Source: Dehalococcoidia bacterium (lineage in GTDB: Bacteria > Chloroflexota > Dehalococcoidia > Bin125). Taken from it: a DNA stretch of 64,000 nucleotides. A model generated the notes under the pieces. It was not told the DNA's origin, searched no databases, and saw only the letters and a program-made list of their open reading frames with translations. A program made the translations under genes and the position numbers. The DNA is taken from the NCBI GenBank assembly GCA_965211635.1, contig OZ242948.1, positions 99,730 to 163,729 of the forward strand, written 5' to 3'. Positions 8,728-51,744 of the stretch are shown in pieces. Every line of letters begins with the position of its first letter. Within the stretch, counting starts at the first letter, position 1.

Positions 8728-8851
8728 TTCCGTTTGGAGAGCTGCCCGCAAGTCGCCATGAGTCGGCCCCGCGCCGGCGTGGCCTTCCGGCGCCTATCGA
8801 GCCGCGGATCCTTAGCCCACGGAGAACCCCCTGCGTACGCCTCCGCTTCCT

Positions 8852-8990
8852 CTCTCCCCCGCGAAGCGGGGGGAGATGCCGAAGGCAGAGGGGGTCCGGC
8901 TCGGAGGGAACCCGCGGCTTCCCCCCCAGTCCACCCAATCGAGTCGGGGTTTGGCTATACGGCGCAGGTTCCCCCCGAGGGGGAAGCGGG
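8852..8990 (+). repeat. REP/RPE-like repeat, copy 2 (core 8852-8888 plus extended tail with a C-run/G-run hairpin)
   Basis: Core: ctctcccccGCGAAGCggggggagATGCCGAAGGCAGagggggtcc. Tail contains gcttccccccc … ggttccccccgagggggaagcgg. Lies between convergent cyclase and ftsK. Confidence 0.8.
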
Positions 8991-9051
8991 TGTTCGCAAC
9001 GGTCTCCTTGCGTGGGGACGTCATCGTCACGGGACCACCCGCAGGTCTCCG

Positions 9052-27224: not shown

Positions 27225-28049
27225 ATGGCCGATCCCGATCTCCTGCCGCCCGATCAACGCCTGGACATCGACCGCGTCCGCGCGTTGCTCACGACTTCCG
27301 AGGTTGGACGCAGTCTTCACTATCTCGTCCAGACGACCTCGACCATGGACGACGCCCGACGACTCGCCAACGAAGGCGCGCCGCACGGCGCCGTCGTCCT
27401 GGCCGACGAACAGACCGCCGGCCGCGGAACCAAGGGACGCATCTGGGTCTCGCCGCCCGGTGAGAGCATCCACGCCACGATCATCGTCCGCCCCGACATC
27501 GAGCAGCTCAAGCGGCTCAGCATCATCAGCCCGGTCGCCACGACCGACGCCGTCCTGGCGACAACTTCTCTGCGACCAACGATCAAGTGGCCCAACGACA
27601 TCCAGATCGAGTCACGCAAGCTGGGGGGCATCCTGATCGAAGCCGAGTGGGGCGATGGTCAGCCCCGCTACGCGCTGGTTGGGATCGGACTCAACATCAA
27701 CTTCGACCCCGCGCCCTGGGCAACGCAGATCGACCGTCCCGCCACCAGCCTGATGATCGAGCTGGGTCAGCGCCAGCAGCGCGAACCGGTCCTCGCCGCG
27801 CTGATCAACGCAATCGAGCGTCGCCTCTTGGAAGCCGCTTCGGCGGAGCTGCATCGAACCTGGAAATCAAGGCTCGACACGCTCGACAAGCCAGTCACGA
27901 TCAGCTCGCCAGGCGGTGGTGAGTTTCATGGAGTCGCCGTTGACGTTGACGAGGCAGGAGCGCTCATCGTGCGAGCAGACCACGGCGAGCGCCGGACATT
28001 CATCGCTGGCGAAGTCACGCTCCGGGAAACGACTCAATCGGAGTCGTGA
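27225..28049 (+). CDS. birA: Biotin--[acetyl-CoA-carboxylase] ligase (group I, no DNA-binding domain)
   Basis: …ADEQTAGRGTKGRIWVSPPG… and …KWPNDIQI… are BPL catalytic motifs. Confidence 0.85.
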   Translation: MADPDLLPPDQRLDIDRVRALLTTSEVGRSLHYLVQTTSTMDDARRLANEGAPHGAVVLADEQTAGRGTKGRIWVSPPGESIHATIIVRPDIEQLKRLSIISPVATTDAVLATTSLRPTIKWPNDIQIESRKLGGILIEAEWGDGQPRYALVGIGLNINFDPAPWATQIDRPATSLMIELGQRQQREPVLAALINAIERRLLEAASAELHRTWKSRLDTLDKPVTISSPGGGEFHGVAVDVDEAGALIVRADHGERRTFIAGEVTLRETTQSES

Positions 28050-31000
28050 GCGCCGGCCCTGTTCGTTCGAGAAGCAGGGCAGGCGCAGTCACTCGTCCGT
28101 CCCAGGGCAGCAGCGACCATGTTCCGTCGATCAGATCGAGCACGCAGCCACCAACGAGCGGCACCGCTTCCCGGCCCCCGACGAATGCCTGCATCCTTTC
28201 GGCCAAAGGAACTCCATCCGGATCGGTCCAATCGAGCAACCACGCCTTTACCCGTTGCGCCTTGGCGTTCCAACAGTCAGTCGGCGTGGAGTCGATGCGC
28301 CTCAGCATCTGATCCGCGTTGGTCAACCGCCGAAACGCGATGTGTACGGGTTCCACGTCCAATAGCGACGCATCTACCGTTAAGGTCGTACCGCCGCGTA
28401 CTACGGTCGTCTCGCCTAGTCCGCCTTCTGCAACGAACCGCATGCCGGCGCTTGCAGCGAACTCCCTGGCCAGCTCGCGCTCGAACTTTGTTTCACCGCC
28501 CATCGAACGCATGCGGGCATCGTCAATCTTCGCATCGACAGATCGAGGCCGACCGGTCGCATTGCCGGCCCAGATCTCGAATGCGGCCAGCGGCAAGCCC
28601 GAGGTATCCCTCACCGAACCGTTCGCGCCCGGTTCGTAACTGACCCGCACGGCGTCCAATGATGTGATCCGTTCAGACAGCGTCGCGGTCAGTTCGTACT
28701 CGGACCACGACATCGTGGCGACCGCAATGGTCCGCAAACCGGCGACCACCTTGAAGTCGCTTGGGAGCGCTTCGGCTCCACTGACCTGCTGATCGAATAC
28801 TGCTGTGATTGTGAAGGAATCGGCGGTTATCGACTCAACTCTCGGCGGCGTCTCTGTCAGGTTGCTGACCAGGAACACGCTGTCGGGCACTCTCGCTCCC
28901 GTCAGGCCGGAGATGCCGCCGCGCGAACCGGCGAGGTAGACGACACCGAACAGGTCCGGCTCGTCCGGCAAGGAGTCCGCCAGGATCAACGTCACCGCGG
29001 CTCCGCCAATCGAAACAGACTCCACATCCGTTGATAGCCCTCCCCCGACAATCTGGAATCTTGATGCTGCAATGCTCGTTGCCGACAAGGGCTGGTCGAA
29101 CCGGAGCACCACAAGTGTGCCGAAGGCATACGCGTTCTCGAGCGTCGGCGCGGCCGTCTCGTCGATCACATCGGTCTCGAACGGGGCCACGGTCAGGCCA
29201 TCGCCGGTCAGGGACTCACCGAAGTAGCTCAGGCGACGATCCTGGCCCGCGCGCAAGCCGGGCGGTGACATCTGCAGCTCCAACTCAGAGCCCTCGACCC
29301 GCTTGACCGACTCCACCACAGCCTCCCCGCTGATCGCAAATTCGGATGCCAGAGGGAGCGACTCGTCAAGCCGTGAGTCGAAGCCGACGCTCAGCCGAAC
29401 CTGGTCCGCGTGAGCGCTCAGCGCGCATGGAGCCGCCGCAGCGATCAACCGATTCAATGCCAGACGAGCCGCATCCTCCGCGCCGGAGTAGCGCAGCTCG
29501 ACAAAGTCGCCCGAGCAGATTGCCACGCCGGGCCGCAGCTCGACGGATTCGAGGGCCTCGATCACGGAGAATGGTCGCTGTTCTCCGTTGACAATCAGCT
29601 CCCATGAGTGATCTGGCCGGTCGGGCGAGCCAATCTCGTCATCGAACGTCAGAACCACTCCACCCACGTCCGAGCCAATACAGCGCAGCGCCCACTCTCG
29701 GTCGATAAAGTTGGTGACGCCAAGAGAAAATGACCCAACCCCGCGATTCCTCGCGTCGTACAGTTGCGTACGACTGGAGTCGTACTCGACGAGCACTTCG
29801 ACGCATTCGGGCGCAGCATCTTCAAGCCGGATGGTGAGCAAGTCAGCCATCGCCGAAGCCGACTTGACCGATGCGGCTACACCATCGACCGACACGTTCA
29901 GATCTGAGTGGTCGACCGACGCCAGCGCCAGCAGCGGGCCGTCAAAGCCAACCACGACCAAGTCGGGGGTCGTACGATCAATCGAGGCCGTCACCGCGCG
30001 TGCTGCGGTCAGATTCGAGACGTCCGCTTCGATGAACCCGTCGACCGTGTTGCCTGTCTCGTCCTCGAGGTTGAATCGGCCGTCTTCAATGGACTGGCCG
30101 ACGTACTCCAAGCGAACGGGCTCATCCGGCTGTAAGCGACGTGCAAGAGTCAGTGTCAACGTGTCGGACTCGAGCGCGATGTCCTCTATGCCAATCTCGC
30201 TTGCCGACTGACCAAAGACAGAGAACCAGACCAGGTCTGCGTTGTCGTCACACTCGAAGTCCTCGATCTCGCTCTCCAGGGTTTCGCACTTCGGAGGTGG
30301 TAACTGAGCGGGGTTCAGCGGTTGGTCGAAGGTGATCGTGATTAAGTCATCCCTGGCAACGATGTTCTCCACTTGCGGAGCCACATCGACGCTGTTCGTT
30401 ACTGCTTGGCTGAACGAGACCACCTGATTGCCTGCATCGTCGTCCTGCAGGCCACCTGAGTCCGGCGCGGAGTAGCTCAGTGTGATGTCCCAGCTCTCGC
30501 GAATCGGAGTCGTGGAACCGATCGTGAGCACCATCCTGTACTCGCCGTCCGTCTCCAAGGTGCGGACAACCGGATCGATGTCAGTTTCTGGCTCGGTGCT
30601 GAACCAGGACGGGTCGATAGACACGGGGGCCAGTACGCGCTGGTCAAACAGGACGGTGATGCTCTGCCCGTCGGCGTCGGTGTGTGCGCTGAGCGGGTAC
30701 GGCGCATAGTCGGTCAGGTTCTCCACAGCCAAGTCTTCGAATCCAAGCGCTCGCGTGCTGTTCACACCGAGCAGGGCGTCGGACTCAGGCGGCGAGTAGC
30801 TCAGCGAAAGCTCGTCGTTGTCTTCGACAACTGACTCATCCAGTGTCAACTGCAGGGTCTGCTGCTCAACTGCTATCGACCTAACGGCGGCGGCTGTACC
30901 GACCAGTTCAAATGCTGCCGACTCCGGAAGAGCGGCTGCGTCCAGTTCACCGTCGAAGATGACTTCCAGGACTCGACCATCGACACTGGCCGACTGTGCG

Positions 31001-34000
31001 CTCGCGGGCGTCACGTTGCGCAGCGGAAACGCGTTGATCTGCGCACGTTGTTGGCCCGGATCGTCGTCCCGGATTCTGATCGTTCCGAACGTAGGGAAGT
31101 ACGTGATCGAAATCTCGTCAGCGGCCGCGACGCGATCTGTCAGGCTGACCACAATCTTGCCGACTCCATCTGGCCCATCGGCGAACACGTGAACTTGTCT
31201 GATCCCGATACCAGTTCCGTCGAGCGTGAAGTGCTCGACTGGAAACGCCAGAGGATTTCCCTCCTCGTCTCGAAAGCGTGGGTCGGCAAAGATCTCCTGG
31301 TCAAGGATGACCACGATCTCGTCGCCGTCGATCGTCCCGGATGCCGGAATCGGCGGCGTGTCTGTCTGATTGTCAATGTCTGTGGTGAAGGACTCCGATT
31401 GATTACCTGTGAGATCGACCACGCCGCCTTGATCGGGTCGCGAGTACGTCAACGTGACCGACTCGTCCTCGGTCAGCGATTGGGACAGCGTCAACGTCAA
31501 TGTCTGACCATCGATTGAGTACGCCGTGACTGTCCTTGGGTCATCGTTGCTCAACGCGAACGACGCGAGCGAGACTGCCGCTTCGCCGTCCAGCGACTGG
31601 TCAAAGGTGAGGATCACGACCGCACCGTTGCCGACAGCGGTCGTCAGCTCCGCAGCGGTATCGGTGTTGTTGGTCAGCGACTCCGAGAAGGACGCGACCG
31701 CTTCATCGTCCAAAGTCCTGAGCGGCGTTTCTGACGGTCGCGTGTACGTCAACGTGTACTCGGCGCCCTCTTTCAGCGGAGTCGCCAGGGTGAGGCTCAA
31801 GGACATCGAGTTCACTACCACATCTTTGACCGTCGGTCCGTCCACACCAAGCGAGAACGCCGATGCAGCCGGCGTCGAATTGGTGTTCAACTCCTTCGAG
31901 AATGCGATCAGCACCTGCGATCCGTCACCGTCAACCGAACGGATCAGCGGCTCCGGGGTCCGGTTGTCCACCTCGAACCCGCCGAACGCAGCGACCTCGA
32001 GCGTTGTGCCTTGTCGCTTCAGTCTCGGTGTGTCCTCGGCCGAGTAGGAAACAGTGACCTGGTCTACAAATGCAAGCGGGGCGGCGAGTGTCAGCCTCAC
32101 ACTCGCCCCGTCGATCGAGACCGCGCTCACCGAGTGTCCTGCCGGCGTGACGCTGAAGTCGGCCATCGCGGGGACAGAGGATTGGTCCAGGGCGCGGTCG
32201 AACTCAAGCGTGACTACAGCCCCATTGGCCAACGCGCCGAGCGGACGAGGCACGCCGTCTGCCCTGTTGTCCACCGACTGGCTCGACCAGGCCGGACTCT
32301 TCCACGTGGCGTCGGCGCTCTGAAGCGCCGGGTCAGTCTCGGCGCCGGGCGACTTGTAGCCGATGGTCGCTGTCTCATTCAGATCGGCGGCCGGATCGAG
32401 GCTCAGCAACACGGTCGAGCCGCTTATCGAGACAGTCGCAACAGCCGCCGATGTCGTGCCGCCCAGCTCAAACGCCGACTTCGCAGGCGTGCCCGCCTCT
32501 GTGTCCAGTAGCGGCCCGGTCATGTGGATCGTCAACAGGCGGCCAGTGGCGTCGATTGAAGCCGAGTGGAACACGGGCGTCGGGTCCACGGTCAGGTTGT
32601 CGACTGTAAGCGACGCGAAACTGTCCACCTTGATCTCCTGCCCCGCACGCTTGAGCGCCGACTCGGTTGGCTGGGTGTAGGCAAGGACCAGTGTGTCCAG
32701 GTGGGTGACCGCAGCACTGAGCGTCAACGTCACTTCTTGTCCCGCTATCGACACGCCGGCGACTTCTGTAGAGCTCAAGCTCAGGCTGAACGCGGAAGCG
32801 GCCGGCGAAGACGAACCATCCAGTACCCGATCAAAACCCACGACCAGTACAGAGCCGTCAACGGTAGCCGAGCGAGGACGCGGCTTGCCGTCGGCATTGT
32901 TGGTCACGCTCTTCGACATGAACGCCTTGACCGCCTGCAAGTGGGCCAGAGAATGCAGTCGCGCCGCCGAAGAGTCAGTCGGCGGGGAGTAGTCGACCGT
33001 GATGGTCTCGCCAACGTCGGCCATTGGATCCAGGGATAGCGACACGCTCGACCCGCTGACGGCGACCGAATCGACCGCTGCGCTACCACCCGCGAGGGAG
33101 AACGTCGAAGCATCGGGCGTGTGCTCCTCGGACTCATCGAGAGCAAGCGAGAACGTGATGGTCAGCGTTGCGCCGTCTGCAGAAATCGAAGCGCTCTCAA
33201 ACTCCGGAGCCGGTGCGACGGTGTTGTTGGTCACCGGTTGATTCGTGAACGAAGCCGCGTCCAGGTTGTTGCGCGCTTCAATCCGAGGAGGGGCGTTCGG
33301 CTTCGAGTAGCTGATGGTGATGACCGCTCCGGCCGCCACTGCTTCGGAGAGCGTCAGGGTGACCGACTCATCGCTGAACGAGGACTCGGCGACCGTTACT
33401 CCCGACGCCCCGCCGATCGAGAACGCAGTTGCGGGCGCGACATTCTTGAGCGGCAAGTCGAACTCCACCGTCAGCGTGTCGTCGTTCACACGAGCTTCCG
33501 TGACTTCGGGCTTCTTCGTTGGCGTCTTGCTCTTGAACTGAAACCCGTAGACGTCTGCCACATTGTGTCCGCCGTCGAGCTGACGCAATGGGGACTCGTT
33601 CGGTTCGGTGTAATCGATTGTGTAGTTCGTCTCTCCGCCGGCGAGGATGCCGTTCAAGGTGAGCGAGACGGTGTCGCCGGAAATCTCTACTTTCGTGATC
33701 TCGCGTCCCTCAATCGAGAACGCGTCCCGTTCCGGAACGCTGTCTTCATCCAGCGCTTCCGAGAACACCAGGGTGACGATCTCGTACAGCGCCGACGCCG
33801 ATTGGAGCGTAGGCGGACTATCGACGATGTTGGTCACCGACCGTGCCGACCAGCTCTGCACGTGCTTGCCGCCCTGATCGAGATCCTGGAGCGGATAGTT
33901 TTCGTCGCCCAGCGCCTGGTCGTAGGCAAGCGTGACACTCTGGCCTTCGACCACTGACCGGCTCAGTTGGATGTCAAGTCGCTGGGGCGCGTCTGACGGG

Positions 34001-34575
34001 CGTATCAGGTCGGAGATGTCGGCGTCGTTGTCATCAACTTCGATGTCGAATGCCGAGAAGTCGGACCACTGGAAGCTGATGTCGCGGATCGGCTCGCAGA
34101 AGGTGACTTGTATGAAGCGGCCATCAGCGTCAGTCTCGACCGACGTGATCTCCGGCGCCGCGTCCGTGACGTTGTCGACGCTCTGGTCATCGAATGATTC
34201 GACTGCTCCCCCGCTCACTCCGACTAACGACGAAGCGCTGGGAATGTAGCTGACGCTGACGCTGCGGTCCGTACAGTCGATGTCCGCAATAGCATCTTCC
34301 AGGGTCAGACTTATCACGGCGCCGTCGATTGAGGCTGAGTCGACCGTCTGCGTCTCGTCGCCCAGCTTGACCGTGAAGTCTGCGGCGACGGCTGTGCTCG
34401 TTGCGGTCAGGTCTTCAGAAAGCGTAATCGTAAGTGTTGACCCATCGACCTGCGCCGCGCTCACCGCTGGAGGGCTCTGGGAAGCGGCGCGGCTGGCAAT
34501 CAGTGCTACTGCGATTGCCAATAGCGAGGCGGCGACGAGGGTCGCAAGCGATCCACTTCGACTCGCCCAGGGCAT
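28015..34575 (-). CDS. Giant (2186 aa) secreted/cell-surface protein with ~17 tandem ~100-aa Ig-like repeats and a unique ~170-aa C-terminal domain
   Basis: N-terminal signal peptide. Repeats follow the pattern SASIDGxxLTITFSxxLD…AFSL…VxSVxVSGxxVxLxL…TVxYxxP…LxDxxGNxxxSFxxQxVTNNT. Convergent 35-nt overlap with birA. GC is slightly below the flanks. Confidence 0.8.
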   Translation of the reverse strand: MPWASRSGSLATLVAASLLAIAVALIASRAASQSPPAVSAAQVDGSTLTITLSEDLTATSTAVAADFTVKLGDETQTVDSASIDGAVISLTLEDAIADIDCTDRSVSVSYIPSASSLVGVSGGAVESFDDQSVDNVTDAAPEITSVETDADGRFIQVTFCEPIRDISFQWSDFSAFDIEVDDNDADISDLIRPSDAPQRLDIQLSRSVVEGQSVTLAYDQALGDENYPLQDLDQGGKHVQSWSARSVTNIVDSPPTLQSASALYEIVTLVFSEALDEDSVPERDAFSIEGREITKVEISGDTVSLTLNGILAGGETNYTIDYTEPNESPLRQLDGGHNVADVYGFQFKSKTPTKKPEVTEARVNDDTLTVEFDLPLKNVAPATAFSIGGASGVTVAESSFSDESVTLTLSEAVAAGAVITISYSKPNAPPRIEARNNLDAASFTNQPVTNNTVAPAPEFESASISADGATLTITFSLALDESEEHTPDASTFSLAGGSAAVDSVAVSGSSVSLSLDPMADVGETITVDYSPPTDSSAARLHSLAHLQAVKAFMSKSVTNNADGKPRPRSATVDGSVLVVGFDRVLDGSSSPAASAFSLSLSSTEVAGVSIAGQEVTLTLSAAVTHLDTLVLAYTQPTESALKRAGQEIKVDSFASLTVDNLTVDPTPVFHSASIDATGRLLTIHMTGPLLDTEAGTPAKSAFELGGTTSAAVATVSISGSTVLLSLDPAADLNETATIGYKSPGAETDPALQSADATWKSPAWSSQSVDNRADGVPRPLGALANGAVVTLEFDRALDQSSVPAMADFSVTPAGHSVSAVSIDGASVRLTLAAPLAFVDQVTVSYSAEDTPRLKRQGTTLEVAAFGGFEVDNRTPEPLIRSVDGDGSQVLIAFSKELNTNSTPAASAFSLGVDGPTVKDVVVNSMSLSLTLATPLKEGAEYTLTYTRPSETPLRTLDDEAVASFSESLTNNTDTAAELTTAVGNGAVVILTFDQSLDGEAAVSLASFALSNDDPRTVTAYSIDGQTLTLTLSQSLTEDESVTLTYSRPDQGGVVDLTGNQSESFTTDIDNQTDTPPIPASGTIDGDEIVVILDQEIFADPRFRDEEGNPLAFPVEHFTLDGTGIGIRQVHVFADGPDGVGKIVVSLTDRVAAADEISITYFPTFGTIRIRDDDPGQQRAQINAFPLRNVTPASAQSASVDGRVLEVIFDGELDAAALPESAAFELVGTAAAVRSIAVEQQTLQLTLDESVVEDNDELSLSYSPPESDALLGVNSTRALGFEDLAVENLTDYAPYPLSAHTDADGQSITVLFDQRVLAPVSIDPSWFSTEPETDIDPVVRTLETDGEYRMVLTIGSTTPIRESWDITLSYSAPDSGGLQDDDAGNQVVSFSQAVTNSVDVAPQVENIVARDDLITITFDQPLNPAQLPPPKCETLESEIEDFECDDNADLVWFSVFGQSASEIGIEDIALESDTLTLTLARRLQPDEPVRLEYVGQSIEDGRFNLEDETGNTVDGFIEADVSNLTAARAVTASIDRTTPDLVVVGFDGPLLALASVDHSDLNVSVDGVAASVKSASAMADLLTIRLEDAAPECVEVLVEYDSSRTQLYDARNRGVGSFSLGVTNFIDREWALRCIGSDVGGVVLTFDDEIGSPDRPDHSWELIVNGEQRPFSVIEALESVELRPGVAICSGDFVELRYSGAEDAARLALNRLIAAAAPCALSAHADQVRLSVGFDSRLDESLPLASEFAISGEAVVESVKRVEGSELELQMSPPGLRAGQDRRLSYFGESLTGDGLTVAPFETDVIDETAAPTLENAYAFGTLVVLRFDQPLSATSIAASRFQIVGGGLSTDVESVSIGGAAVTLILADSLPDEPDLFGVVYLAGSRGGISGLTGARVPDSVFLVSNLTETPPRVESITADSFTITAVFDQQVSGAEALPSDFKVVAGLRTIAVATMSWSEYELTATLSERITSLDAVRVSYEPGANGSVRDTSGLPLAAFEIWAGNATGRPRSVDAKIDDARMRSMGGETKFERELAREFAASAGMRFVAEGGLGETTVVRGGTTLTVDASLLDVEPVHIAFRRLTNADQMLRRIDSTPTDCWNAKAQRVKAWLLDWTDPDGVPLAERMQAFVGGREAVPLVGGCVLDLIDGTWSLLPWDGRVTAPALLLERTGPALTTPIESFPGA

Positions 34576-36275: not shown

Positions 36276-37499
36276 TCAGATCACCATCCACCACGGGGCG
36301 GCAATCACGTTCGTCCCGATCTGCTCCACTGCGTCGCCGTCATGCAGCAGGAGCCCGGCCTTGCTGACGTCCCGGTACTCATCGAGGAACGCCCGCAGGT
36401 GCCGCACATCGCGCAGTCGCGGCGTTGCGCCCGACTTGACTTCAATCGGCAGCAGCTGGCCCGCTTGCTCGATCACGAGATCGACCTCCTGGTCGCTCGA
36501 CGTTCGCCAGTAGTAGATCTCGGCCCTGGTCGGCCGACTGTCTCGCCAGGTCAGAAGGTCGTGCAGCACGATGTTCTCCAGATGCGCGGCGCGCGGTTCC
36601 GCTTCCTGACTCAGTCGCAAGGCCAGGCCCGTGTCGCTCCAGTACGCCTTGGGCGACTTGATCAGACGCTTGGTGCGGTTGGATGTGTAGGCGGGCAGTC
36701 GCACGAACAGATAGGAGGTCTCCAGCAGGTTTAGATACCGGTGAACCGTTGACTGTGAGAGCGAGAGGTCGCGGGCCAGGTCGGACTGGTTGAGGATTTG
36801 GCCGACACGCAGGCAGGTGGCCCGCATGACGCGGCGGAAGTCTGGCAGGGCGGTGATGTTGGCCAGGTCGCGTAAGTCACGTTCGAGGTAGGTGCCGACG
36901 TACGCGTCGAACCAGATCGCCCGATCCTGGTGATGCGTCAGTTGCAGCGCAGGCACGGGGAATCCGCCCCGTCGCGCAAGCTCCCGCCAATCTTCCCGCT
37001 CGCTCGGCAGGGACCGCAGCAGCTCGGCCCACTGTCGGTGATCCGTCTCCAGTAGCCGCTCCCAGAGACCGTGGGGCCTGAGGCCGAGCTGCTCGCGGCG
37101 GGTCATCGGCCAGAGCGTGAGGTAGCTGGCGCGTCCGGCCAGGGACTCCGAAACACGTCTCATCAGCAGCAAGTTGGCCGAGCCGGTCAGCAGGAACTGT
37201 CCCGCCTGCCGGCGGCTGTCGACCGCGCTCTTGACCGCCTGCATCAAATCGGGCTCGCGCTGGACTTCATCCAGCGTGAGCGGCGTCTCGCCACCGATGA
37301 GCAAGCCGGGATCCTCACGGGCCGCTGAGCGAGCGTCGAAATCGTCTAGTGTTACATAACGTCGACTGTCGCCGGCCAGCTGCCGCGCCAGCGTGCTCTT
37401 GCCGGTCTGTCGGGCGCCGGTGACGACGACGACGGGCATGACTCTGAGTTGCTGCTCAAGGCTGTCGACGGCGAGCCGCGGGAGGATGCGTTCGTCCAT
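36276..37499 (-). CDS. AAA-type ATPase, DUF4143 family
   Basis: …VVVTGARQTGKSTLARQL… Walker A. C-terminal DUF4143-like region. Confidence 0.75.
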   Translation of the reverse strand: MDERILPRLAVDSLEQQLRVMPVVVVTGARQTGKSTLARQLAGDSRRYVTLDDFDARSAAREDPGLLIGGETPLTLDEVQREPDLMQAVKSAVDSRRQAGQFLLTGSANLLLMRRVSESLAGRASYLTLWPMTRREQLGLRPHGLWERLLETDHRQWAELLRSLPSEREDWRELARRGGFPVPALQLTHHQDRAIWFDAYVGTYLERDLRDLANITALPDFRRVMRATCLRVGQILNQSDLARDLSLSQSTVHRYLNLLETSYLFVRLPAYTSNRTKRLIKSPKAYWSDTGLALRLSQEAEPRAAHLENIVLHDLLTWRDSRPTRAEIYYWRTSSDQEVDLVIEQAGQLLPIEVKSGATPRLRDVRHLRAFLDEYRDVSKAGLLLHDGDAVEQIGTNVIAAPWWMVI

Positions 37500-45774: not shown

Positions 45775-45810
45775 CTTTCCAGTCCCTGCTTCCCGCAGAG
45801 TTCTGTTCCC

Positions 45811-45859
45811 CTCTCCCCCCGCGAAGCGGGGGGAGATGCCGAAGGCAGAGGGGGGCTCC
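45811..45859 (+). repeat. REP/RPE-like repeat, copy 8 (canonical core)
   Basis: ctctccccccgcgaagcggggggagatgccgaaggcagaggggggctcc. Confidence 0.85.
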
Positions 45860-45928
45860 CCGCCCAACTTCACAGCGTCGGTTACCGTTGCCATCGAATC
45901 GCATTGAAGAGTTAGTGAAAGCGTCGTC

Positions 45929-46693
45929 ATGCCCAGACCCCGAGTTCTGCAATGGATCCCAATCGCGCTCGTCGCTGTAATCGCCGTCCTGATCGGCACG
46001 GTTGTGCTGACCACCGCCGACGACTCAGACGACTCCGCTCAGGACGTCCGCATCCTCGCCCGGCAGACCGGCGACGGTCGTGCCGAGGTCGCGCTCCAGG
46101 TCCGCGCCGATGATCACACCTGGGGCGAGCGCGTCCTCCCTGAGCAACGATTCCTCGCGCCGGATTCCGAAGCGGGACTCTGGCGGGCGAGCTCGATCAT
46201 CACGGTGGAAGCCGAGGATGACTCGGATGGCGTCGATCCAGCCGCCTTCGGCCTGACCGCAACCGCCGAAATGCGCGGACCCGACGGCGAGCCGATGGGA
46301 GCCGTCACCATCATCCAGGCTCCACGCGGACTCCTGATCCAGGCGCGCCTGACCGCTGTACCTGAAGGCTGGCATGGGTTCCACATCCACGAAACGGGAT
46401 CCTGCGAGCCCGACTTCTCGGCCGCCGGCGGACATTACAACCCGACCGGCATCGGTCACGGCATTCTGCACGAGGCTGGACATCACCCAGGCGACACAGT
46501 CAACATCTACGCGCACGCCGACGGCACGGCCAACGCCGACCAGTACACGGTTGAAGCCACGCTCGGCGCAGGTGCGGCTACCCTGTTCGATGCCGACGGC
46601 TCCGCCATCATCGTGCACGAAGGCCCGGACAGCTACGGCGCCGAGCCCGGCGCCGGCGGTCGCGTCGCCTGCGGCGTCATCACCCTCAACTGA
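45929..46693 (+). CDS. sodC: Membrane-anchored Cu/Zn superoxide dismutase
   Basis: N-terminal TM. …HGFHIHETGSC…AGGHYNP…GDTVNI…IVHEGPD…GGRVACGVI…. Confidence 0.85.
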   Translation: MPRPRVLQWIPIALVAVIAVLIGTVVLTTADDSDDSAQDVRILARQTGDGRAEVALQVRADDHTWGERVLPEQRFLAPDSEAGLWRASSIITVEAEDDSDGVDPAAFGLTATAEMRGPDGEPMGAVTIIQAPRGLLIQARLTAVPEGWHGFHIHETGSCEPDFSAAGGHYNPTGIGHGILHEAGHHPGDTVNIYAHADGTANADQYTVEATLGAGAATLFDADGSAIIVHEGPDSYGAEPGAGGRVACGVITLN

Positions 46694-46725: not shown

Positions 46726-46873
46726 CCCTCTCCCTGAGGAGAGTTGCGCGTAAACCAACCTAAGTCGGCCCCGCGCAGGCGGGGCCCCGCGATGCCTATC
46801 TGGTCACGACGCCCCCGCCTGCGCGGGGGCGACTTCATGGAGGGATTGCGCGCAGGTCTCCTGAGGGAGAGGG
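46726..46873. repeat. Palindromic composite element (two REP-like half-units in inverted orientation)
   Basis: Arms: ccctctccctgaggagagttgcgcg (46726-46750) and cgcgcaggtctcctgagggagaggg (46849-46873). Internal hairpins: ggccccGCGCAGGCggggcc (46767-46786) and cgcccccGCCTGCGCgggggcg (46810-46831), whose loops are mutual reverse complements. Confidence 0.7.
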
Positions 46874-46978
46874 TTGGGGTGACGGCCCCTCCCCTGTCCT
46901 GACCAGTTGCCCGACAATCCCCCACTCGATAGCCTCAGAATGCATCCGACCATTGAAGCATCCCAAGAGGAGCACCGA

Positions 46979-47383
46979 ATGTCCTTGTTCCAGACCGCCT
47001 CCGCCCACTGCGACCTGCCTTGCGGCGTCTACGACCCCGCCCAGGCCAAGATCGAAGCGATGTCCGTCCTCAAGTCGATGGAGAAGTACAACGACTCCGA
47101 CGACCACGACTTCAAGGCCCGCTGCACCATCGTCAAGGAACAGCGCGCCGAGGAGGTCAAGCACCACCTCTGGGTCCTCTGGACCGACTTCTTCAAGCCC
47201 CACCACCTCGAGGCCGACGCCTCGATCCACGAGCTCATGTGGAACGCGACCAAGGTCGCCGGCGAAGCCAAGAAGACCAACGACGTCGCCAAAGGCCAGG
47301 AACTGATCGACCTGATCGACCAGATCAGCGACAAGTTCTGGGCCACCGCCGAGGGTCCGGGCGCCGGCGTCTACGCGCAGTAG
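46979..47383 (+). CDS. sodN: Nickel superoxide dismutase precursor
   Basis: Pro-peptide MSLFQTASA, then the Ni-hook HCDLPCGVYDPAQA… of mature Ni-SOD. Alternative starts in the ORF are at 46907 and 46940. Confidence 0.85.
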   Translation: MSLFQTASAHCDLPCGVYDPAQAKIEAMSVLKSMEKYNDSDDHDFKARCTIVKEQRAEEVKHHLWVLWTDFFKPHHLEADASIHELMWNATKVAGEAKKTNDVAKGQELIDLIDQISDKFWATAEGPGAGVYAQ

Positions 47384-47395
47384 GACTGCGGTTCC

Positions 47396-47445
47396 CTTCT
47401 CCCCCCGCGAAGCGGGGGGAGATGCCGAAGGCAGAGGGGGGCACC
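47396..47445 (+). repeat. REP/RPE-like repeat, copy 9 (canonical core)
   Basis: cttctccccccgcgaagcggggggagatgccgaaggcagaggggggcacc, immediately after the sodN stop. Confidence 0.85.
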
Positions 47446-47470
47446 CGCCATTCTGACGGAGTAACTCCCG

Positions 47471-49318
47471 CTAGGAGCCTGCGGCCATGGCGAAGTCGGC
47501 GGGCGAGTCGTCATACTCCTCGACCGGTGCACCGGCGGAGAAGGCGGCGTCATCTCGAGATATCTGCTTACCCATCGCTCGCTCTATCAGATTGAGCAAC
47601 CGTTCCGCTCTGAGGGAGAAGAATTGCCAAAAGTCGTCGTCGCGCAGGGGCTCTTCACCAATGAGATGAGAGCGGAGCACTGCAGAGAGCCGCTCCGGTG
47701 CAATCTCCTCTTCCAGCCTGATTAGGTACGCGGAAGGCGCGCGGCCGCCGATCATGCGATTGGTGTGCGCGGAGATCGCGGTCTTGTTGATGATGCTGTT
47801 GTACTTCGCAGGAGGAATCGGCGGCTTGCTCTCGTTGCACCACTTCTGTGGGAATACGTGGTGGATATCGACCGACTCCTCGTCGACCACTTGAAAGACG
47901 AGCGGCTCGGCAGTTCTAAAGTCGAGCGAACCCTCTCGCATAAGCAGCGCGTGAATGCCCTTGTATGCCGCGCTGTTTCGAGTTCGCAGTGTGAGCAACC
48001 GATTGGCCTGAAATCCAGCGTCCCGAATCGTTGAAGGCTCGCCGCCTTGTGAACGAATCCAGTTGACCACCTCCACCAAATCGCGAGCAAAGGTCGATTC
48101 GACGGCACTTCCGTACATCTCCCCAAGCACCCCGCACCAGTACCACTTGGCGATGTTCTGTTGGACAGAGTCAGCAGAGGCGTGGTGTCCTAAGTCAGCA
48201 AAGATCGCAGCCAGAGGGACGAGCTGTGTCTGATAGGGAACGTCTTGCGACTTGAAGACGTGCTGCCGCCGCAGAAACCGCGCAGCTTCTATGAACCCGT
48301 TCTCAATGGCGTCGGCCCATCTCTTGTACTCAGCCAGCGATAGCTGCAGAATCTCGCGTCTCCGACAACCAACCGCAGGTTGCCGTTCCGCGCCTGGGTT
48401 TTGGCTGACCGCTCTGCGGCGACGCTCTAGTGTCGCCAACAGCGTCACTGCTTGGAGGAACTGATCACCTTGGACGCTGGCAAGAATGCCGAACTTCTCT
48501 CTCATCCGGTCCCGCCGTTGTTCCCAGTTCTCTCGAAGCTGGAAACTGTCAGCCGCGAATGATGCCGTGACGAGCTCGAACACCGTTAGCGTCACGCCAC
48601 CTGTATTGACCTTCTCAAACACGAGGCAGACCGCTTCCTTGGTCGTGCTCTTTGCCATTTGAATCACTGGGACCTGGTACTTTTTGAAGCGCTCGATCAC
48701 CTCGGCCTCGAAGCGGTCATAGAGATCGACCAATTCATCTGCATGTTTGTGATACCTGTTGAACTCCCTGCGCCAACTGGCAGCGTCGAATATCTGATCG
48801 AGCGGGAACAGAGCTTGCTCGTACTCTTGCTCTGGCGTTGAGAGGTCAAGTTCTATGTCTCGAAGTCGCCGGATCTGTCGATCGGCTGGTACGCCGAAGA
48901 TCCATTCGTCCCTCTCTCCTTCATCGCTCAGCGCAAGATTCATGTCGATGTAGTAGTGCCTGTGCAGGATTTTTCCCCGAGTGTCGCGCGTCCGGACCGG
49001 AGACTTAGTGAAGAGAGCCTGATACAGCGAGGTCAACCGCTGTTGGCCATCGAGCAACAGCGTGTCAGGAACAGGAGGGTCGTCAAGGCTGGCACCTTCA
49101 ATCACCCGCGGCTTGAAGGCAACGTCGCCGCCATTCTCCAAGGTCATGATCGCATTGATCGGGAATGAGACGGAGATACTAGCGATCAAGCTACGAATTC
49201 GCTCGTCGTCCCAGACCCACGGGCGCTGAAAGTCCGGTAGCTGCAATGAACCCTCATTGACAGCCTTGAGCAAATCGGCGAGTCGCACCTCGTTAGTTGT
49301 GAAATCGGCTCCAAGCAC
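47471..49318 (-). CDS. DUF262 (ParB-like NTPase) + DUF1524 (His-Me finger nuclease) protein: GmrSD-type type IV restriction / SspE-like defense nuclease
   Basis: N-terminal …LPDFQRPWVWDDERIRSLIASI…FPINAIM… (DUF262 DGQQR-type: …LLDGQQRLTSL…). C-terminal …HHVFPQKW… (DUF1524). Segment GC ~56%. Confidence 0.8.
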   Translation of the reverse strand: MLGADFTTNEVRLADLLKAVNEGSLQLPDFQRPWVWDDERIRSLIASISVSFPINAIMTLENGGDVAFKPRVIEGASLDDPPVPDTLLLDGQQRLTSLYQALFTKSPVRTRDTRGKILHRHYYIDMNLALSDEGERDEWIFGVPADRQIRRLRDIELDLSTPEQEYEQALFPLDQIFDAASWRREFNRYHKHADELVDLYDRFEAEVIERFKKYQVPVIQMAKSTTKEAVCLVFEKVNTGGVTLTVFELVTASFAADSFQLRENWEQRRDRMREKFGILASVQGDQFLQAVTLLATLERRRRAVSQNPGAERQPAVGCRRREILQLSLAEYKRWADAIENGFIEAARFLRRQHVFKSQDVPYQTQLVPLAAIFADLGHHASADSVQQNIAKWYWCGVLGEMYGSAVESTFARDLVEVVNWIRSQGGEPSTIRDAGFQANRLLTLRTRNSAAYKGIHALLMREGSLDFRTAEPLVFQVVDEESVDIHHVFPQKWCNESKPPIPPAKYNSIINKTAISAHTNRMIGGRAPSAYLIRLEEEIAPERLSAVLRSHLIGEEPLRDDDFWQFFSLRAERLLNLIERAMGKQISRDDAAFSAGAPVEEYDDSPADFAMAAGS

Positions 49319-49389
49319 TGGCTACTCCCTTTCTTGCATGACTCGGCGCCTTGGCGCCACCTGGTCCCCGGAGGGGGCAATCGCACAGC

Positions 49390-49773
49390 CTACCGACCGA
49401 ACTCCCCCTCGCCCTCCGGCTCAGCCAACTGCGCCGTCAATCCCGATGTCGGCGCGTAGCCGCGCTCGGTGACCTCCAGGTGGACGCCCTCGTGATCCTG
49501 CAGGCAGGCGATCACCTGGAAGAGGTTGCGCGCCTGCGGATTGCCCGCCGGGCCGAACATCCGCATCAGGCTCTTGGGCGATCGGGCCGTGCGCGATCCC
49601 AGCTCCTCGAAGCCCAGCGTGGCGTTGATGTAGTCGCGCAGTACGAGCTTGCCCGTGTCCAGATCGCCGCTCAGCAGGCACTCGACGCCTTCGTGCAGCA
49701 GCGCCCGACGAAACGCCGAATCGCTCTGCGCGCGGGCCTGCACCGTCTCCTTGAAGTCGCGTGTCAGTGCCAT
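49390..49773 (-). CDS. Putative addiction-module antidote protein (COG3636/HigA-like HTH antitoxin)
   Basis: MALTRDFKETVQ…, …SPKSLMRMFGPAGNPQARNLFQVIACL… matches the COG3636 pattern as recalled. Confidence 0.65.
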   Translation of the reverse strand: MALTRDFKETVQARAQSDSAFRRALLHEGVECLLSGDLDTGKLVLRDYINATLGFEELGSRTARSPKSLMRMFGPAGNPQARNLFQVIACLQDHEGVHLEVTERGYAPTSGLTAQLAEPEGEGEFGR

Positions 49774-49775
49774 CG

Positions 49776-49891
49776 TTCATTCCTCTCGCCGCCGCGCGTG
49801 CATCGAGGCCGTCGAACCAGCGACCGAACGCGCTTCGTCCGTGCTCGTCGATGTATTCGCTAACCTCAATCACGACCTGATGGTAACACAT
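49776..49891 (-). pseudogene. Truncated remnant (~38 codons) of a COG3657 RelE/ParE-like addiction-module killer gene
   Basis: …VIEVSEYIDEHGRSAFGRWFDGLDARAAAR… is the typical N-terminus of the toxin family. Only 118 nt separate this start from the antitoxin start; the ORF's downstream 470-nt continuation is non-homologous frame read-through. Confidence 0.5.
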
Positions 49892-49934
49892 CGGTTACCA
49901 GAGAGGCAGAGGAATCAGGACATGGTGGAATAGT

Positions 49935-49956
49935 CCCCGGGAGGACTCGAACCTCC
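49935..49956 (-). repeat. 22-bp direct repeat of the tRNA-Arg 3' end (att-like)
   Basis: ccccgggaggactcgaacctcc is identical to 51674-51695 (T-arm plus acceptor 3' strand of the tRNA at 51668-51744). No cloverleaf or CCA here. Confidence 0.55.
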
Positions 49957-49990
49957 GGGTTTTGAAGCTCTGCGGGGGGTGTCCCAGGCG

Positions 49991-51430
49991 CTAGCGCACT
50001 CGCCTCACCCGCGAGCGGCGCGGGGTCGGTTGCTGCAACTCGGGATCGTCGTTCCACGGTTGGCGAATGAACCGGACTCCCAGGCTTCGGTCGATCTCTC
50101 GCCACTTGGACTCTTCCTCCGACGTGACGAAGGTGATCGCTTCGCCGTCGCGGCCCATTCTGCCGGTCCGGCCGACGCGGTGCGTGAAGAGCTGCGGAGA
50201 GTCAGGCAGGTCGTAGTTGATCACCTGTCCCACGCCGTCGATATCGAGGCCGCGCGCCGCGACGTTGGTCGCGACCAGGATTGGCGTGTCACCCGAGCGG
50301 AAGTCGCGCATCACGCGCTCGCGCGCGTTCTGACTCAGGTTGCCCTGCAGCGCGCCCACCGGATAACCCAGCTCGTCCAGCTGGCGGGCCAGCTTCTTCA
50401 CCCCATGCTTGGTCTTGCCGAAGACGATCACCGCCTCGCCGTTGCGCTCGTCCAGCAGAGAGCGCAGCGCGCCAATCTTGTGATCGCGTCGGATCGAGTA
50501 GATCAGATGCGTGACGCTGGGCAGCGCCTGCAGGTCGGCGTCGACCTCCACGGTGGCGGGCTGCCGCAGGTGTTTGGCCGCCGTCTTCGCCACCCAGTCG
50601 GGCAGCGTCGCCGAGAACAGCGCGGTCTGACGTTGGGATGGCGTGTAACCGAGGATCGCCTCGACATCGCGAGCAAAGCCACGATCCAGCATCTCATCCG
50701 CCTCATCCAGGACCAGGAATCGCACCGAACGAAGATCGAGCGTCCCCTGTCGAAGATGGTCCAGGGTGCGACCCGGGGTGCCGATCACGATCTGCGGTCC
50801 GCGCCTGAGGGCCGCATGCTCGGGCCGCGCCGAGCGGCCGCCGTAGAGCAGCGTCGTCTGCAATCCCCGGCCCTTCGCCGCCGCGTCCGTCACCTCGCCC
50901 ACCTGGATCGCCAGTTCCCGGGTCGGCGTGAGCACCAGCGCCTGTACCTCGCGCACCGCAGGATCGCAGCCTTCAAGCAGCGGAATCGCGAACGCCAGGG
51001 TTTTGCCGGAACCGGTCCGCGCCTGACCGATCACGTCGCGACCGGACAGCAGCAGGGGAATCGTCTCTTGCTGAATCGGCGTGGGTTCGGAGATGTCCAT
51101 CGCCGAGAGCGCAGTCATCGTCGAGCGGCTCAGTTCCATTTCGGAAAAGGTCGCGGCCGGACGATCCGCAGCCCGGCTGTTGGCCGAGTCGTTGGGTTGG
51201 CTGGGAGCAACCGGCTTGACTTCGGTGCGCTTGCCCCGCGGCTCTTCCGAAGGAAGGTTCGCGCGGGCGCTGCCGCGTCGACCGGCGTAGCACGGGCTGC
51301 AGTACACCGACCGGTCGGCGCGGGGACGGAACGGAACGCTGGTCGAAGCGCCGCAATCGGCGCAGGTGGCCTGATGGCGAGGCTTGCGTGCGCGCGACCG
51401 TGGCCGCGCAGATGCGGATGCTGGAGGCAT
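49991..51430 (-). CDS. DEAD-box ATP-dependent RNA helicase with N-terminal C4 zinc ribbon
   Basis: CADCG…CSPC ribbon. Q-motif …TPIQQETIP…, AQTGSGKT, DEADEM, SAT, HRVGRTGR. Confidence 0.9.
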   Translation of the reverse strand: MPPASASARPRSRARKPRHQATCADCGASTSVPFRPRADRSVYCSPCYAGRRGSARANLPSEEPRGKRTEVKPVAPSQPNDSANSRAADRPAATFSEMELSRSTMTALSAMDISEPTPIQQETIPLLLSGRDVIGQARTGSGKTLAFAIPLLEGCDPAVREVQALVLTPTRELAIQVGEVTDAAAKGRGLQTTLLYGGRSARPEHAALRRGPQIVIGTPGRTLDHLRQGTLDLRSVRFLVLDEADEMLDRGFARDVEAILGYTPSQRQTALFSATLPDWVAKTAAKHLRQPATVEVDADLQALPSVTHLIYSIRRDHKIGALRSLLDERNGEAVIVFGKTKHGVKKLARQLDELGYPVGALQGNLSQNARERVMRDFRSGDTPILVATNVAARGLDIDGVGQVINYDLPDSPQLFTHRVGRTGRMGRDGEAITFVTSEEESKWREIDRSLGVRFIRQPWNDDPELQQPTPRRSRVRRVR

Positions 51431-51667: not shown

Positions 51668-51744
51668 TGGTCCCCCCGGGAGGACTCGAACCTCCAGCCT
51701 ACGGATTAGAAGTCCGTCGCTCTGTCCGGTTGAGCTACGGGGGG
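51668..51744 (-). tRNA. tRNA-Arg (anticodon TCT)
   Basis: Manual cloverleaf of 77 nt. Acceptor CCCCCCG/CGGGGGG. D-arm GCTC…GAGC with A14 and G18G19. Anticodon stem ACGGA/TCCGT with loop CTTCTAA. T-arm GGAGG-TTCGAGT-CCTCC. Discriminator A and encoded CCA. Confidence 0.85.

Follow-up and report, generated by a model that had tools for sequence, protein, structure and literature searches.

Among the described defence systems, the closest to the gene considered here is BrxU, a GmrSD-family type IV enzyme from the pEFER BREX island of Escherichia fergusonii (PADLOC family HEC-05; PDB 7P9K and 7P9M). BrxU cuts DNA carrying 5-methylcytosine (5mC), 5-hydroxymethylcytosine (5hmC) or glucosyl-5hmC in a nucleoside triphosphate (NTP)-dependent manner, an activity abolished by the mutations D474A and H475A (PMC8565348), and the role of its DGQQR motif has been described (Picton 2021, PMC8565348). 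The motifs QR, (I/V)DGQQR and FxxxN characterize the GmrSD family at large (Machnicka 2015, PMC4619093), in which the canonical form of nuclease motif 1 is (I/L/V)(E/D)H(I/L/V)xPQ (PMC4619093). A further GmrSD-like defence protein, HEC-06, was validated by Payne et al. 2024 (bioRxiv 10.1101/2024.01.29.577857); its defence is lost when either DGQQR or the nuclease motif is mutated, and GmrSD-like genes were found to be frequently embedded in type I restriction-modification (R-M) and Hma systems (bioRxiv 10.1101/2024.01.29.577857). We analysed a stretch of 64,000 nucleotides from a Dehalococcoidia bacterium (GenBank assembly GCA_965211635.1, contig OZ242948.1), hereafter called the window, in which a first-pass annotation made from the sequence had picked out a 615-aa protein at 47471-49318 as a stand-alone DUF262-DUF1524 defence nuclease, either a type IV enzyme or an orphan sensor of DNA modification. 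Our analysis favours the first of these, the gene probably encoding a solitary, modification-dependent type IV restriction enzyme that belongs to the GmrSD family and is closest to BrxU.

Results

An intact gene with the architecture of BrxU

The 615-aa open reading frame (ORF) and the motifs quoted for it are present in the ORF list, with LPDFQRP, DGQQR and HHVFPQKW beginning at aa 27, 90 and 486, respectively. The gene and the parts of its product are placed as follows.

47471..49318, minus strand: nuclease gene (GmrSD/BrxU-like, 615 aa), with its GTG start at 49318 and its stop codon at 47471-47473
49325..49331, minus strand: Shine-Dalgarno-like AAGGGAG, 6 nt 5' of the GTG start, read from the sequence
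48557..49279, minus strand: N-terminal DUF262/GmrS domain, aa 14-254, a ParB/Srx-type NTPase (Pfam PF03235, GmrSD_N)
49037..49051, minus strand: DGQQR motif, aa 90-94, the predicted site of NTP gamma-phosphate binding and hydrolysis
47999..48556, minus strand: all-helical linker or middle region, aa 255-440 (secondary structure of the AlphaFold2 (AF2) model; colinear with the BrxU linker in hhalign)
47564..47998, minus strand: C-terminal HNH/His-Me finger domain, aa ~441-585, a divergent DUF1524 relative (AF2 fold, BrxU alignment)
47849..47869, minus strand: catalytic strand D484-I-H486-H487-V-F-P490 (BrxU alignment, motif conservation among homologs)

The start codon is backed by end-to-end alignment with homologs, and the database holds a protein (P0001) identical to the 615-aa product. 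At least 8000 homologs were found at E≤1e-5, showing that this is not a chance ORF. The best 120 of these have lengths of about 623 aa and share 52% identity or more with the query; they come from many phyla and carry PF03235 as their sole precomputed Pfam domain, except for three with an added N-terminal PF14088 (P0054, P0081 and P0105; 792-795 aa). The AF2 model of the whole protein, built on the homolog alignment, reached a pLDDT of 87.5 and a pTM of 0.80. The gene is intact and an ordinary member of a very large known family. Annotated members go under the name 'DUF262 domain-containing protein', except in two plasmid records that use 'hypothetical protein'; no NCBIfam model matches the 615-aa protein.

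The DUF262 module that had been read from the sequence was readily confirmed by Pfam, PF03235 matching aa 14-254 with an E-value of 5.2e-29 and 102.2 bits against a cutoff of 33.2. We scored the invariance of residues in an alignment of 67 close homologs, in all 67 of which the three N-terminal GmrSD motifs are retained (Q31-R32, L-D90-G-Q-Q-R94 and F234-E-K-V-N238). ParB CTPase domains were also matched when the whole model was compared with the PDB by Foldseek. Beyond the DUF262 domain, helices span residues 246-461 of the model with pLDDT mostly above 85.

Aligned by hhalign with BrxU, the sequence of which was taken from pEFER, the homolog family gave a probability of 93.9% and an E-value of 1.6e-7 over 475 columns, residues 13-586 pairing with residues 7-578 of BrxU. 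The family profile likewise recovered BrxU from the PDB at E 6e-8, in three colinear pieces; a PDB search with the single sequence gave no match, BrxU being reached by the family profile only. Structural comparison pointed the same way, since the best Foldseek match of the whole model in the PDB was BrxU 7P9K (E 4.9e-14, probability 1.00, 658 aligned columns), followed by Cas9 HNH domains. The two proteins thus share a DUF262 NTPase, a helical linker and an HNH nuclease within chains of 587 aa in BrxU and 615 aa here, and DGQQR, the catalytic histidine, a proline and two asparagines stand in register, as do S47 and the dimer-switch serine of BrxU, S42. This full-length match bears out the proposal of a two-domain GmrSD-like enzyme. 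Both proteins also fall short on the Pfam DUF1524 model, and members of the present family resemble BrxU in being embedded in other defence operons. They differ in that identity is low, 16-17% in the Foldseek alignments and 23% by hhalign; in that the catalytic strand reads H-V-D-H-I-Y-P in BrxU and D-I-H-H-V-F-P here, with acid and histidine swapped; in that the RLFDS motif of BrxU is SLIAS here; and in that BrxU is the product of a BREX-operon gene whereas the present copy is solitary.

A divergent HNH domain at the C terminus

The second half of the predicted domain pair fared less simply. The first-pass annotation had taken failure of a domain search to recover DUF262/DUF1524 as counting against it, and formally this outcome occurred, since the DUF1524 label (PF07510) was not recovered for this HH variant; the C-terminus was then examined by other means, and the BrxU profile alignment together with the predicted fold identifies it as an HNH domain. 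BrxU itself stays below the PF07510 cutoff (17 bits against 23). The C-terminal half alone, compared with Pfam at E≤10, matched only PlyCA_N, by chance. A link to canonical DUF1524 was made by a Pfam scan of 70 proteins with the same C-terminal domain (E<1e-46), taken from a profile search listing strong same-family matches only; PF07510 was found in 3 of the 70 (best E-value 8e-5) and HNH_4 in 6.

In the hhalign alignment H486-H487-V-F-P is in register with the catalytic D474-H475-I-Y-P of BrxU. Nuclease motif 1 is accordingly present as I485-H486-H487-V-F-P490-Q491, with H487 equivalent to H475 and P490 to P478 of BrxU. An invariant aspartate, D484, lies two residues before H486 at the position of BrxU H472, and we infer that it stands in for the canonical acid. 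A pair of histidines is a known variant of the HNH site in colicin DNases. The two conserved asparagines of the E/D-H-N-N signature are kept, N511 corresponding to BrxU N509 and N520 to BrxU N518 (beside N519), and the residues around them read IINKTAISAHTN, as against L(G/A)NLxLLxxxN for motif 2. Residues invariant in the C-terminal half of all 67 close homologs are D484, H486, H487, P490, C494, N511, K512, N520, P528, Y531 and H551, while the motif (D/E)xHH[ILV]FP occurs in 67 of 67 close homologs and in 62 of 70 broader relatives.

The AF2 model places these residues in a beta-beta-alpha arrangement, with H486 and H487 in the strand 483-487, the strand 512-516 directly after N511 and N520 in the helix 517-523 (pLDDT ~80-93). 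A model of residues 425-600 alone (pLDDT 83) again had BrxU as its top Foldseek match (probability 1.0, TMq 0.53, rmsd 5.1 Å), followed by Cas9 HNH, the C-terminal domain of SspE, ScoMcrA and Cap5, and further down the list by a few unrelated folds. Taken together, the evidence for membership of the His-Me finger/HNH group is moderate, and the domain is a divergent DUF1524/HNH member beyond the reach of Pfam's model.

Comparison with other GmrSD-like systems

GmrSD proper, represented by EcoCT GmrS/GmrD and Eco94GmrSD, shares with the window protein QR, (I/V)DGQQR and FxxxN, an HNH-type C-terminus with His...Asn...Asn, a fused single chain and a defence or mobility context. It differs in having (E/D)H where the window protein has HH and in its motif 2, and the window protein has no evident NxxFxxKK and is invisible to PF07510.

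When the protein was compared with the PADLOC models, the best match was to PDC-M55C (E 1.4e-27), followed by HEC-05, the BrxU family (6.7e-23), and by the DUF262 part of NsnA. PDC-M55 is a three-gene 'phage defence candidate' (PDC) that came from guilt-by-embedding. The match to PDC-M55C pairs aa 13-423 with profile positions 17-391 of 554 and so ends before the nuclease domain, and the other two families of this three-family cassette were not seen beside the gene. The HEC-05 model covers aa 86-297 only. HEC-06 is alike in combining DUF262 and HNH in a single-gene defence protein, in its distance from BrxU and in being embedded in Hma and R-M systems, but its PADLOC models cover only aa 10-98 (E 2.5e-7) and it keeps the canonical EHICP.

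A large family in defence contexts

Proteins with this C-terminal domain are common. Searched against 1.84 billion representatives, each of which stands for a 50%-identity cluster, the C-terminal profile matched 3069 at E≤1e-3, of which 349 reached E≤1e-30. In species-representative genomes we located 79 family loci, in both Bacteria and Archaea, the hosts including Methanosarcina, Geobacillus, Streptomyces, many Dehalococcoidia and Solirubrobacterales; family members were also found in 2 phage records and on 21 plasmids, among which 9 are conjugative.

We then clustered all flanking ORFs over ~62 non-redundant family loci. No universal partner gene emerged from these loci. Type I R-M methylases were neighbours at 11 of them, HsdR with a Schlafen-AlbA_2 tail at 9, HsdS at 4 and AbiEi/AbiEii at 4; other family members have ApeA-HEPN, SIR2 and DUF4062 genes next to them, or else a Schlafen-type helicase, a MazG-like gene, dCMP deaminase and transposases. 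Broader relatives (alignment A4, P0132-P0252) are fused to Schlafen-AlbA_2 (6), protein kinase (3) or OLD-like TOPRIM (3) domains, and others to DUF6416, DUF4357 or DUF5655; such fusions are typical of defence proteins.

Proposed action and the nature of the trigger

The assignment to a solitary type IV enzyme is backed by the DUF262 score, the homology to BrxU, the predicted fold, the invariant catalytic residues, the PADLOC matches to HEC-05 and the GmrSD-like PDC-M55C, the defence context of the family, the accessory status of the gene and the literature. If the protein behaves as BrxU and Eco94GmrSD do, it would be dimeric at rest. The DUF262 domain would bind and hydrolyse NTP at DGQQR, as analyses of BrxU and GmrSD suggest (PMC8565348, PMC4619093), and nucleotide binding would open the intertwined dimer, cycles of dissociation and re-association licensing the HNH domain. 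This domain would then degrade incoming DNA with modified bases, most likely modified cytosines such as 5mC, 5hmC or glucosyl-5hmC. Unmodified host DNA would be spared, so that no partner methylase would be needed.

Several observations weigh against this reading. PF07510 was unmatched both by the whole protein at E≤0.01 and by the C-terminal region alone at E≤10, and no Pfam HNH model matches the 615-aa protein. H486, invariant in the subfamily, replaces the E/D that directly precedes the catalytic histidine of canonical GmrSD, and motif 3 (NxxFxxKK) is not evident, the sequence after N520 being RMIGGRAPSAYL, with no F..KK. At the level of the isolated domain the Foldseek E-values are weak, none reaching 1e-3. 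A promoter scan of 47200-50100 found no sigma-70-like site, and the search for modification genes covered the 64-kb window only. HEC-06 and SspE show that a GmrSD-like architecture does not fix specificity. Finally, the literature yielded no biochemical or phage assay for any member of the (D/E)xHH subfamily, for which reason the substrate is pure inference.

Some of these points bear on what sets the enzyme off. The protein might be a defence nuclease of GmrSD architecture, with the same NTPase-gated HNH mechanism, that responds to something other than modified cytosine, be it a different modified base, some structure in the DNA or a protein of the phage, or that acts as an abortive-infection effector. 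We regard this as unlikely, though as the strongest of the alternatives. The distance from BrxU in both kinds of alignment, the restriction of the HEC-05 match to aa 86-297 and a catalytic strand of the form DxHH rather than xDH are all compatible with a different trigger; GmrSD-like proteins differ in the phages they stop, as HEC-06 shows (bioRxiv 10.1101/2024.01.29.577857), and the kinase, Schlafen and OLD-TOPRIM fusions of the broader relatives hint at varied signalling. Yet the characterized stand-alone DUF262-HNH enzymes GmrSD, Eco94GmrSD and BrxU are all modification-dependent, and a solitary nuclease without an immunity partner is most simply understood as one that tells self from non-self by modification, which favours the type IV assignment. 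Related to this is the still more doubtful idea that the (D/E)xHH[ILV]FP proteins form a functionally distinct GmrSD-like branch, a large one that Pfam's nuclease models miss, in which the colicin-like His-His site and the divergent linker could go with another base modification or with no modification dependence at all. On this idea the swap of 57-59% identical alleles between the conserved flanks of the slot described below could reflect selection for changing specificity.

Partner genes and the comparison with SspE

The alternative raised by the first-pass annotation, an orphan sensor of a mark made elsewhere, has SspE (PDB 6JIV and 7DRI) as its model, a phosphorothioate (PT)-sensing NTPase and nickase. 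The window protein would in this case sense PT marks laid down by sspABCD or dnd elsewhere in the genome and nick unmarked invaders. SspE does have the same layout of a DUF262 domain with DGQQR and an HNH-like C-terminal domain, its C-terminal domain is among the weak fold matches (probability 0.28), and there are weak N-terminal matches to the PADLOC SspE models (E 2e-5 to 3e-3) and to SspE in the PDB (E 0.01). These matches are confined to aa 8-98 and aa 6-101, respectively, which is the generic DUF262 core, whereas BrxU aligns from end to end; moreover, the SspE models have 766-775 positions and SspE itself is ~770 aa long, compared with the 615 aa of the window protein.

SspE works with sspABCD, which was found neither in the window nor in the family neighbourhoods. 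A PADLOC scan of 49 plausible ORFs of the window detected no ssp, dnd or other modification partner, as had been noted for sspBCD and dnd from the sequence, and no ssp or dnd gene recurs beside the ~62 family loci; the scan spanned 64 kb, with the other ~3 Mb of the genome lying outside it, which leaves the SspE-like explanation some room. We nevertheless judge it improbable, and of the two options in the first-pass annotation it is the GmrSD/BrxU type IV enzyme that is favoured and the SspE-like sensor that is disfavoured. The same scan gave strong matches to SspH, mad8, PbeA, DpdF, BrxH and DrmD, which we rejected as partners: they are cross-hits that arise from housekeeping ATPase and helicase domains and belong to FtsK, UvrB and the DEAD-box helicase described below, the apparent SspH and PbeA matches being FtsK and UvrB.

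9052-11685: FtsK (PDB FtsK 2IUT, E 1e-94)
5616-7757: UvrB (E about 1e-274)

A variable interval between tRNA-Arg and sodN

The host belongs to a Chloroflexota lineage, as clusters at ≥90% identity with the UvrB and the DEAD helicase of the window among their members also include NCBI proteins labelled Chloroflexota. The nuclease gene lies in an interval bounded by a functional tRNA gene and by sodN, with the following features besides the gene itself.

51668..51744, minus strand: functional tRNA-Arg(TCT), anchor of the variable interval (ARAGORN; identical sequence in the related loci L002 and L089)
49991-51430, minus strand: DEAD-box helicase bearing a treble-clef zinc finger at its N terminus (Pfam)
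49934..49981, minus strand: internally deleted pseudo-tRNA-Arg (repeat analysis, tRNA alignment A6)
49784..49891, minus strand: remnant of a toxin gene, limited to the N-terminal ~35 codons (FDGLDA.AA against the intact 117-aa L093 toxin, E 0.005)
49390..49773, minus strand: ORF of 127 aa, placed where the antitoxin of a degraded RelE/ParE-type pair would be (by position and by fragments in relatives)
49362..49395, minus strand: decayed copy of tRNA-Arg reduced to the 3' half, ~44 nt upstream of the start codon of the nuclease gene (alignment A6)
47384..47446, no strand assigned: REP-like palindromic element of 63 nt, flanked by the stops of two convergent genes, sodN and the nuclease gene
46907..47383, plus strand: sodN (Ni superoxide dismutase), the conserved far boundary (Pfam Sod_Ni 2e-39; TIGR02753)

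In composition the gene stands apart from its surroundings, as the first-pass annotation had remarked. The GC content of 500-nt windows is 0.548-0.584 within the nuclease gene and 0.64-0.69 in the flanks, the gene as a whole has a GC content of 0.57 against 0.65 around it, and its GC content at third codon positions (GC3) is 0.67 compared with 0.78-0.89 in seven neighbouring genes. The interval shows tRNA adjacency, repeats derived from the tRNA 3' end, variable content and deviant composition, as expected of a tRNA islet, and the islet context that had been proposed therefore stands, the content of the interval varying among close relatives. No integrase-like ORF lies between 47384 and 51744.

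We compared the interval with those of related genomes. Three of these, L002, L088 and L089, were found through the nuclease; a second search started from sodN to remove this ascertainment bias. A family member occupies the same slot in all three. In L002, 20 nt separate the functional tRNA-Arg from the start of the homolog, the end of which lies 40 nt short of sodN. Besides the nuclease gene and REP, the slot of L088 and L089 contains a DEAD helicase, a gene of 256-268 aa, an antitoxin fragment and a full-length pseudo-tRNA. The flanking proteins (sodN, ABC, ABC2 and DEAD) are 80-92% identical to those of the window; the nuclease is only 57-59% identical, and the three other alleles are 74% identical among themselves. 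At the DNA level the identity to L089 is 77-89% for the flanks, 82% for the antitoxin fragment and 92-96% for REP, compared with 66-69% for the nuclease ORF. The flanks give no single genome tree, the 465-aa gene being nearest to L002 and sodN and ABC nearest to L088/L089, and the window nuclease allele is an outlier under any possible genome tree.

In a neighbour-joining tree with 200 bootstraps the three syntenic alleles form a clade with 100% support. The window allele and P0002/3 lie outside this clade and group (77%) with alleles from unrelated contexts, those of L001 and of two defence islands, L091 and L092. The 57-59% identity of the window allele to the syntenic alleles does not exceed its identity to alleles from other phyla.

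Other relatives lack the gene altogether. In L094/L095, whose sodN is 96% identical by the database search, the slot contains neither a DUF262 gene nor a DEAD helicase. In L093 (sodN 99% identical over 74% of its length) the nuclease position is taken by ~1.9 kb of ORF-poor DNA (9534-11365, GC 0.59-0.61) in which tblastn found no match to the nuclease, in an assembly with a coverage of only 5x; this stretch could be a badly decayed gene, a different cargo or an artefact of indel errors. The gene is also absent beside sodN in L097-L102. The first-pass annotation had stated that it would be contradicted if GC content were identical and all relatives kept the gene here, and what we found is a gene that is absent from L093 and L094/L095 and a real dip in GC.

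These data show that the interval between tRNA-Arg and sodN is a variable hotspot with allele turnover, and an old one rather than the result of one recent insertion. A one-off insertion of the nuclease gene was rejected, given the different, 57-59% identical allele in the same slot of L002, L088 and L089, and simple vertical inheritance at the locus was rejected on the allele distances, the placement in the tree and the absence from close relatives. The nuclease gene is accessory, its allele being exchanged or lost rather than simply inherited. We infer that exchange took place by homologous recombination through the conserved flanks.

The same comparison bears on whether the gene serves defence at all. 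A domesticated or housekeeping role, for instance in DNA repair or chromosome maintenance, with vertical descent and fast evolution, would suit the finding that a family member comes right after the tRNA-Arg sequence and upstream of sodN in four related genomes, and that the REP element and the antitoxin fragment around the gene are conserved. It is hard to reconcile with the lack of the gene in the interval of L093 and L094/L095 and beside sodN in L097-L102, with a GC3 far under that of the host, with an allele that groups with non-syntenic alleles and is no nearer to the syntenic ones than to those of other phyla, and with the spread of the family over Bacteria, Archaea, plasmids and R-M operons; we consider it very improbable. 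The least credible alternative, an inactive relic decaying beside a dead toxin gene and pseudo-tRNAs, draws on the remnants nearby (the toxin trace, two pseudo-tRNA pieces and the REP element) and on the lack of a promoter-like site in 47200-50100, and is countered by an intact 615-codon frame matching homologs from end to end, by the retention of every invariant residue, including DGQQR and D484/H486/H487/N511/N520/H551, by a good Shine-Dalgarno sequence and by the confident AF2 model.

Repeats and remnants around the gene

Of the elements that the first-pass annotation had listed as neighbours, the REP copy is real: the 63-nt element at 47384-47446 has a second copy at 45798-45860 that is 92% identical. 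Its core, TCTCCCCCCGCGAAGCGGGGGGAGA, occurs 5 times in the 64-kb window, where 0 copies are expected by chance, and a scan for this core placed the copies as follows.

21338-21362, 21894-21918, 22809-22833, 45812-45836 and 47398-47422: REP core copies

The three cores at ~21.3-22.8 kb lie within or beside predicted coding regions. REP copies are 92-98% identical in L088 and L089, where the copy in the same position as the 63-nt element beside the nuclease gene is 92-96% identical. The 63-nt element may act as a bidirectional terminator hairpin.

The proposed tRNA att-like repeat also exists, as 22 nt at 49935-49956 that are an exact copy of the 3' end of tRNA-Arg(TCT). As the edge of a nuclease-bearing islet it was rejected, since the pair of repeats brackets the DEAD helicase and not the nuclease gene. 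At the position of the decayed tRNA copy next to the nuclease gene there is a full-length pseudo-tRNA in L088 and L089 and a functional tRNA in L002. The DEAD helicase, which is present also in L088, L089 and L093, sits between the functional tRNA-Arg and the pseudo-tRNA and is absent there in L002 and L094; it seems to have arrived with a fresh tRNA copy by insertion at the tRNA-Arg locus. Its GC3 of 0.81 looks native, and its 90% cluster has 27 members in Chloroflexota metagenome-assembled genomes.

The toxin-antitoxin remnant that had been suggested has indirect support only. At the same position L093 has an intact 117-aa ORF; proteins homologous to it contain PF05973 and go by the names addiction module killer or RelE/ParE toxin, and an 11-residue stretch is common to the window and the L093 toxin. 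The 127-aa ORF in the antitoxin position, on the other hand, matches no family in Pfam, NCBIfam, PADLOC, PHROGs or the PDB, and PDB searches with this ORF and with the L093 toxin gave chance matches only. Fragments homologous to the 127-aa ORF occur at the same position in L089 (77% aa identity over 61 residues), L088 and L093.

The sodN end of the slot varies as well. In L089 a duplicated 3' fragment of sodN (7961-8125, 55 codons, 87% identical to the window sodN) and an inserted alpha/beta-hydrolase gene (8139-9401) lie between the nuclease gene and the intact sodN, showing that this end of the slot also takes insertions. In L094 (2719-4495) and L095 (623-2399) the slot holds three co-oriented ORFs of 209, 220 and 155 aa (GC 0.54-0.61) with no Pfam match, an alternative cargo of the hotspot and possibly another defence or accessory module.

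Beyond sodN in the window lies a Cu/Zn superoxide dismutase gene (45929-46693, plus strand; Pfam), with two nested inverted repeats at 46726-46873 between the two dismutase genes. The Cu/Zn gene is present in the window, L089, L093 and L094 and absent between ABC2 and sodN in L002 and L088.

Two further proteins of the window deserve mention. A 407-aa protein at 36276-37499 (minus strand) gives a full-length match to PADLOC PDC-S01 (E 2.8e-117), a single-gene 'phage defence candidate' that was not found in the supplements of the preprint; by eye it has a Walker-A GARQTGKST and resembles an AAA ATPase with a DUF4143-like C-terminus, and it has no relative in the PDB. A 2186-aa ORF at 28015-34575 (minus strand) has no PADLOC match at E≤1e-8; among the relatives, L101 has a 2097-aa Big_5/SWM_repeat protein adjoining its sodN.

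Discussion

The window gene directs attention to a very common defence protein whose nuclease half is missed by PF07510, with the result that the annotation of thousands of these genes goes no further than 'DUF262 domain-containing protein'. Members of the subfamily can be recognized simply by the motif (D/E)xHH[ILV]FP...N...N taken together with alignment to BrxU. Should its substrate differ from those of BrxU and GmrSD, the known range of type IV restriction would widen, although nothing we found indicates so. For the organism, the locus exemplifies the turnover of defence genes: the REP element, the pseudo-tRNA and the toxin-antitoxin debris are kept, while the nuclease allele between them is replaced or lost.

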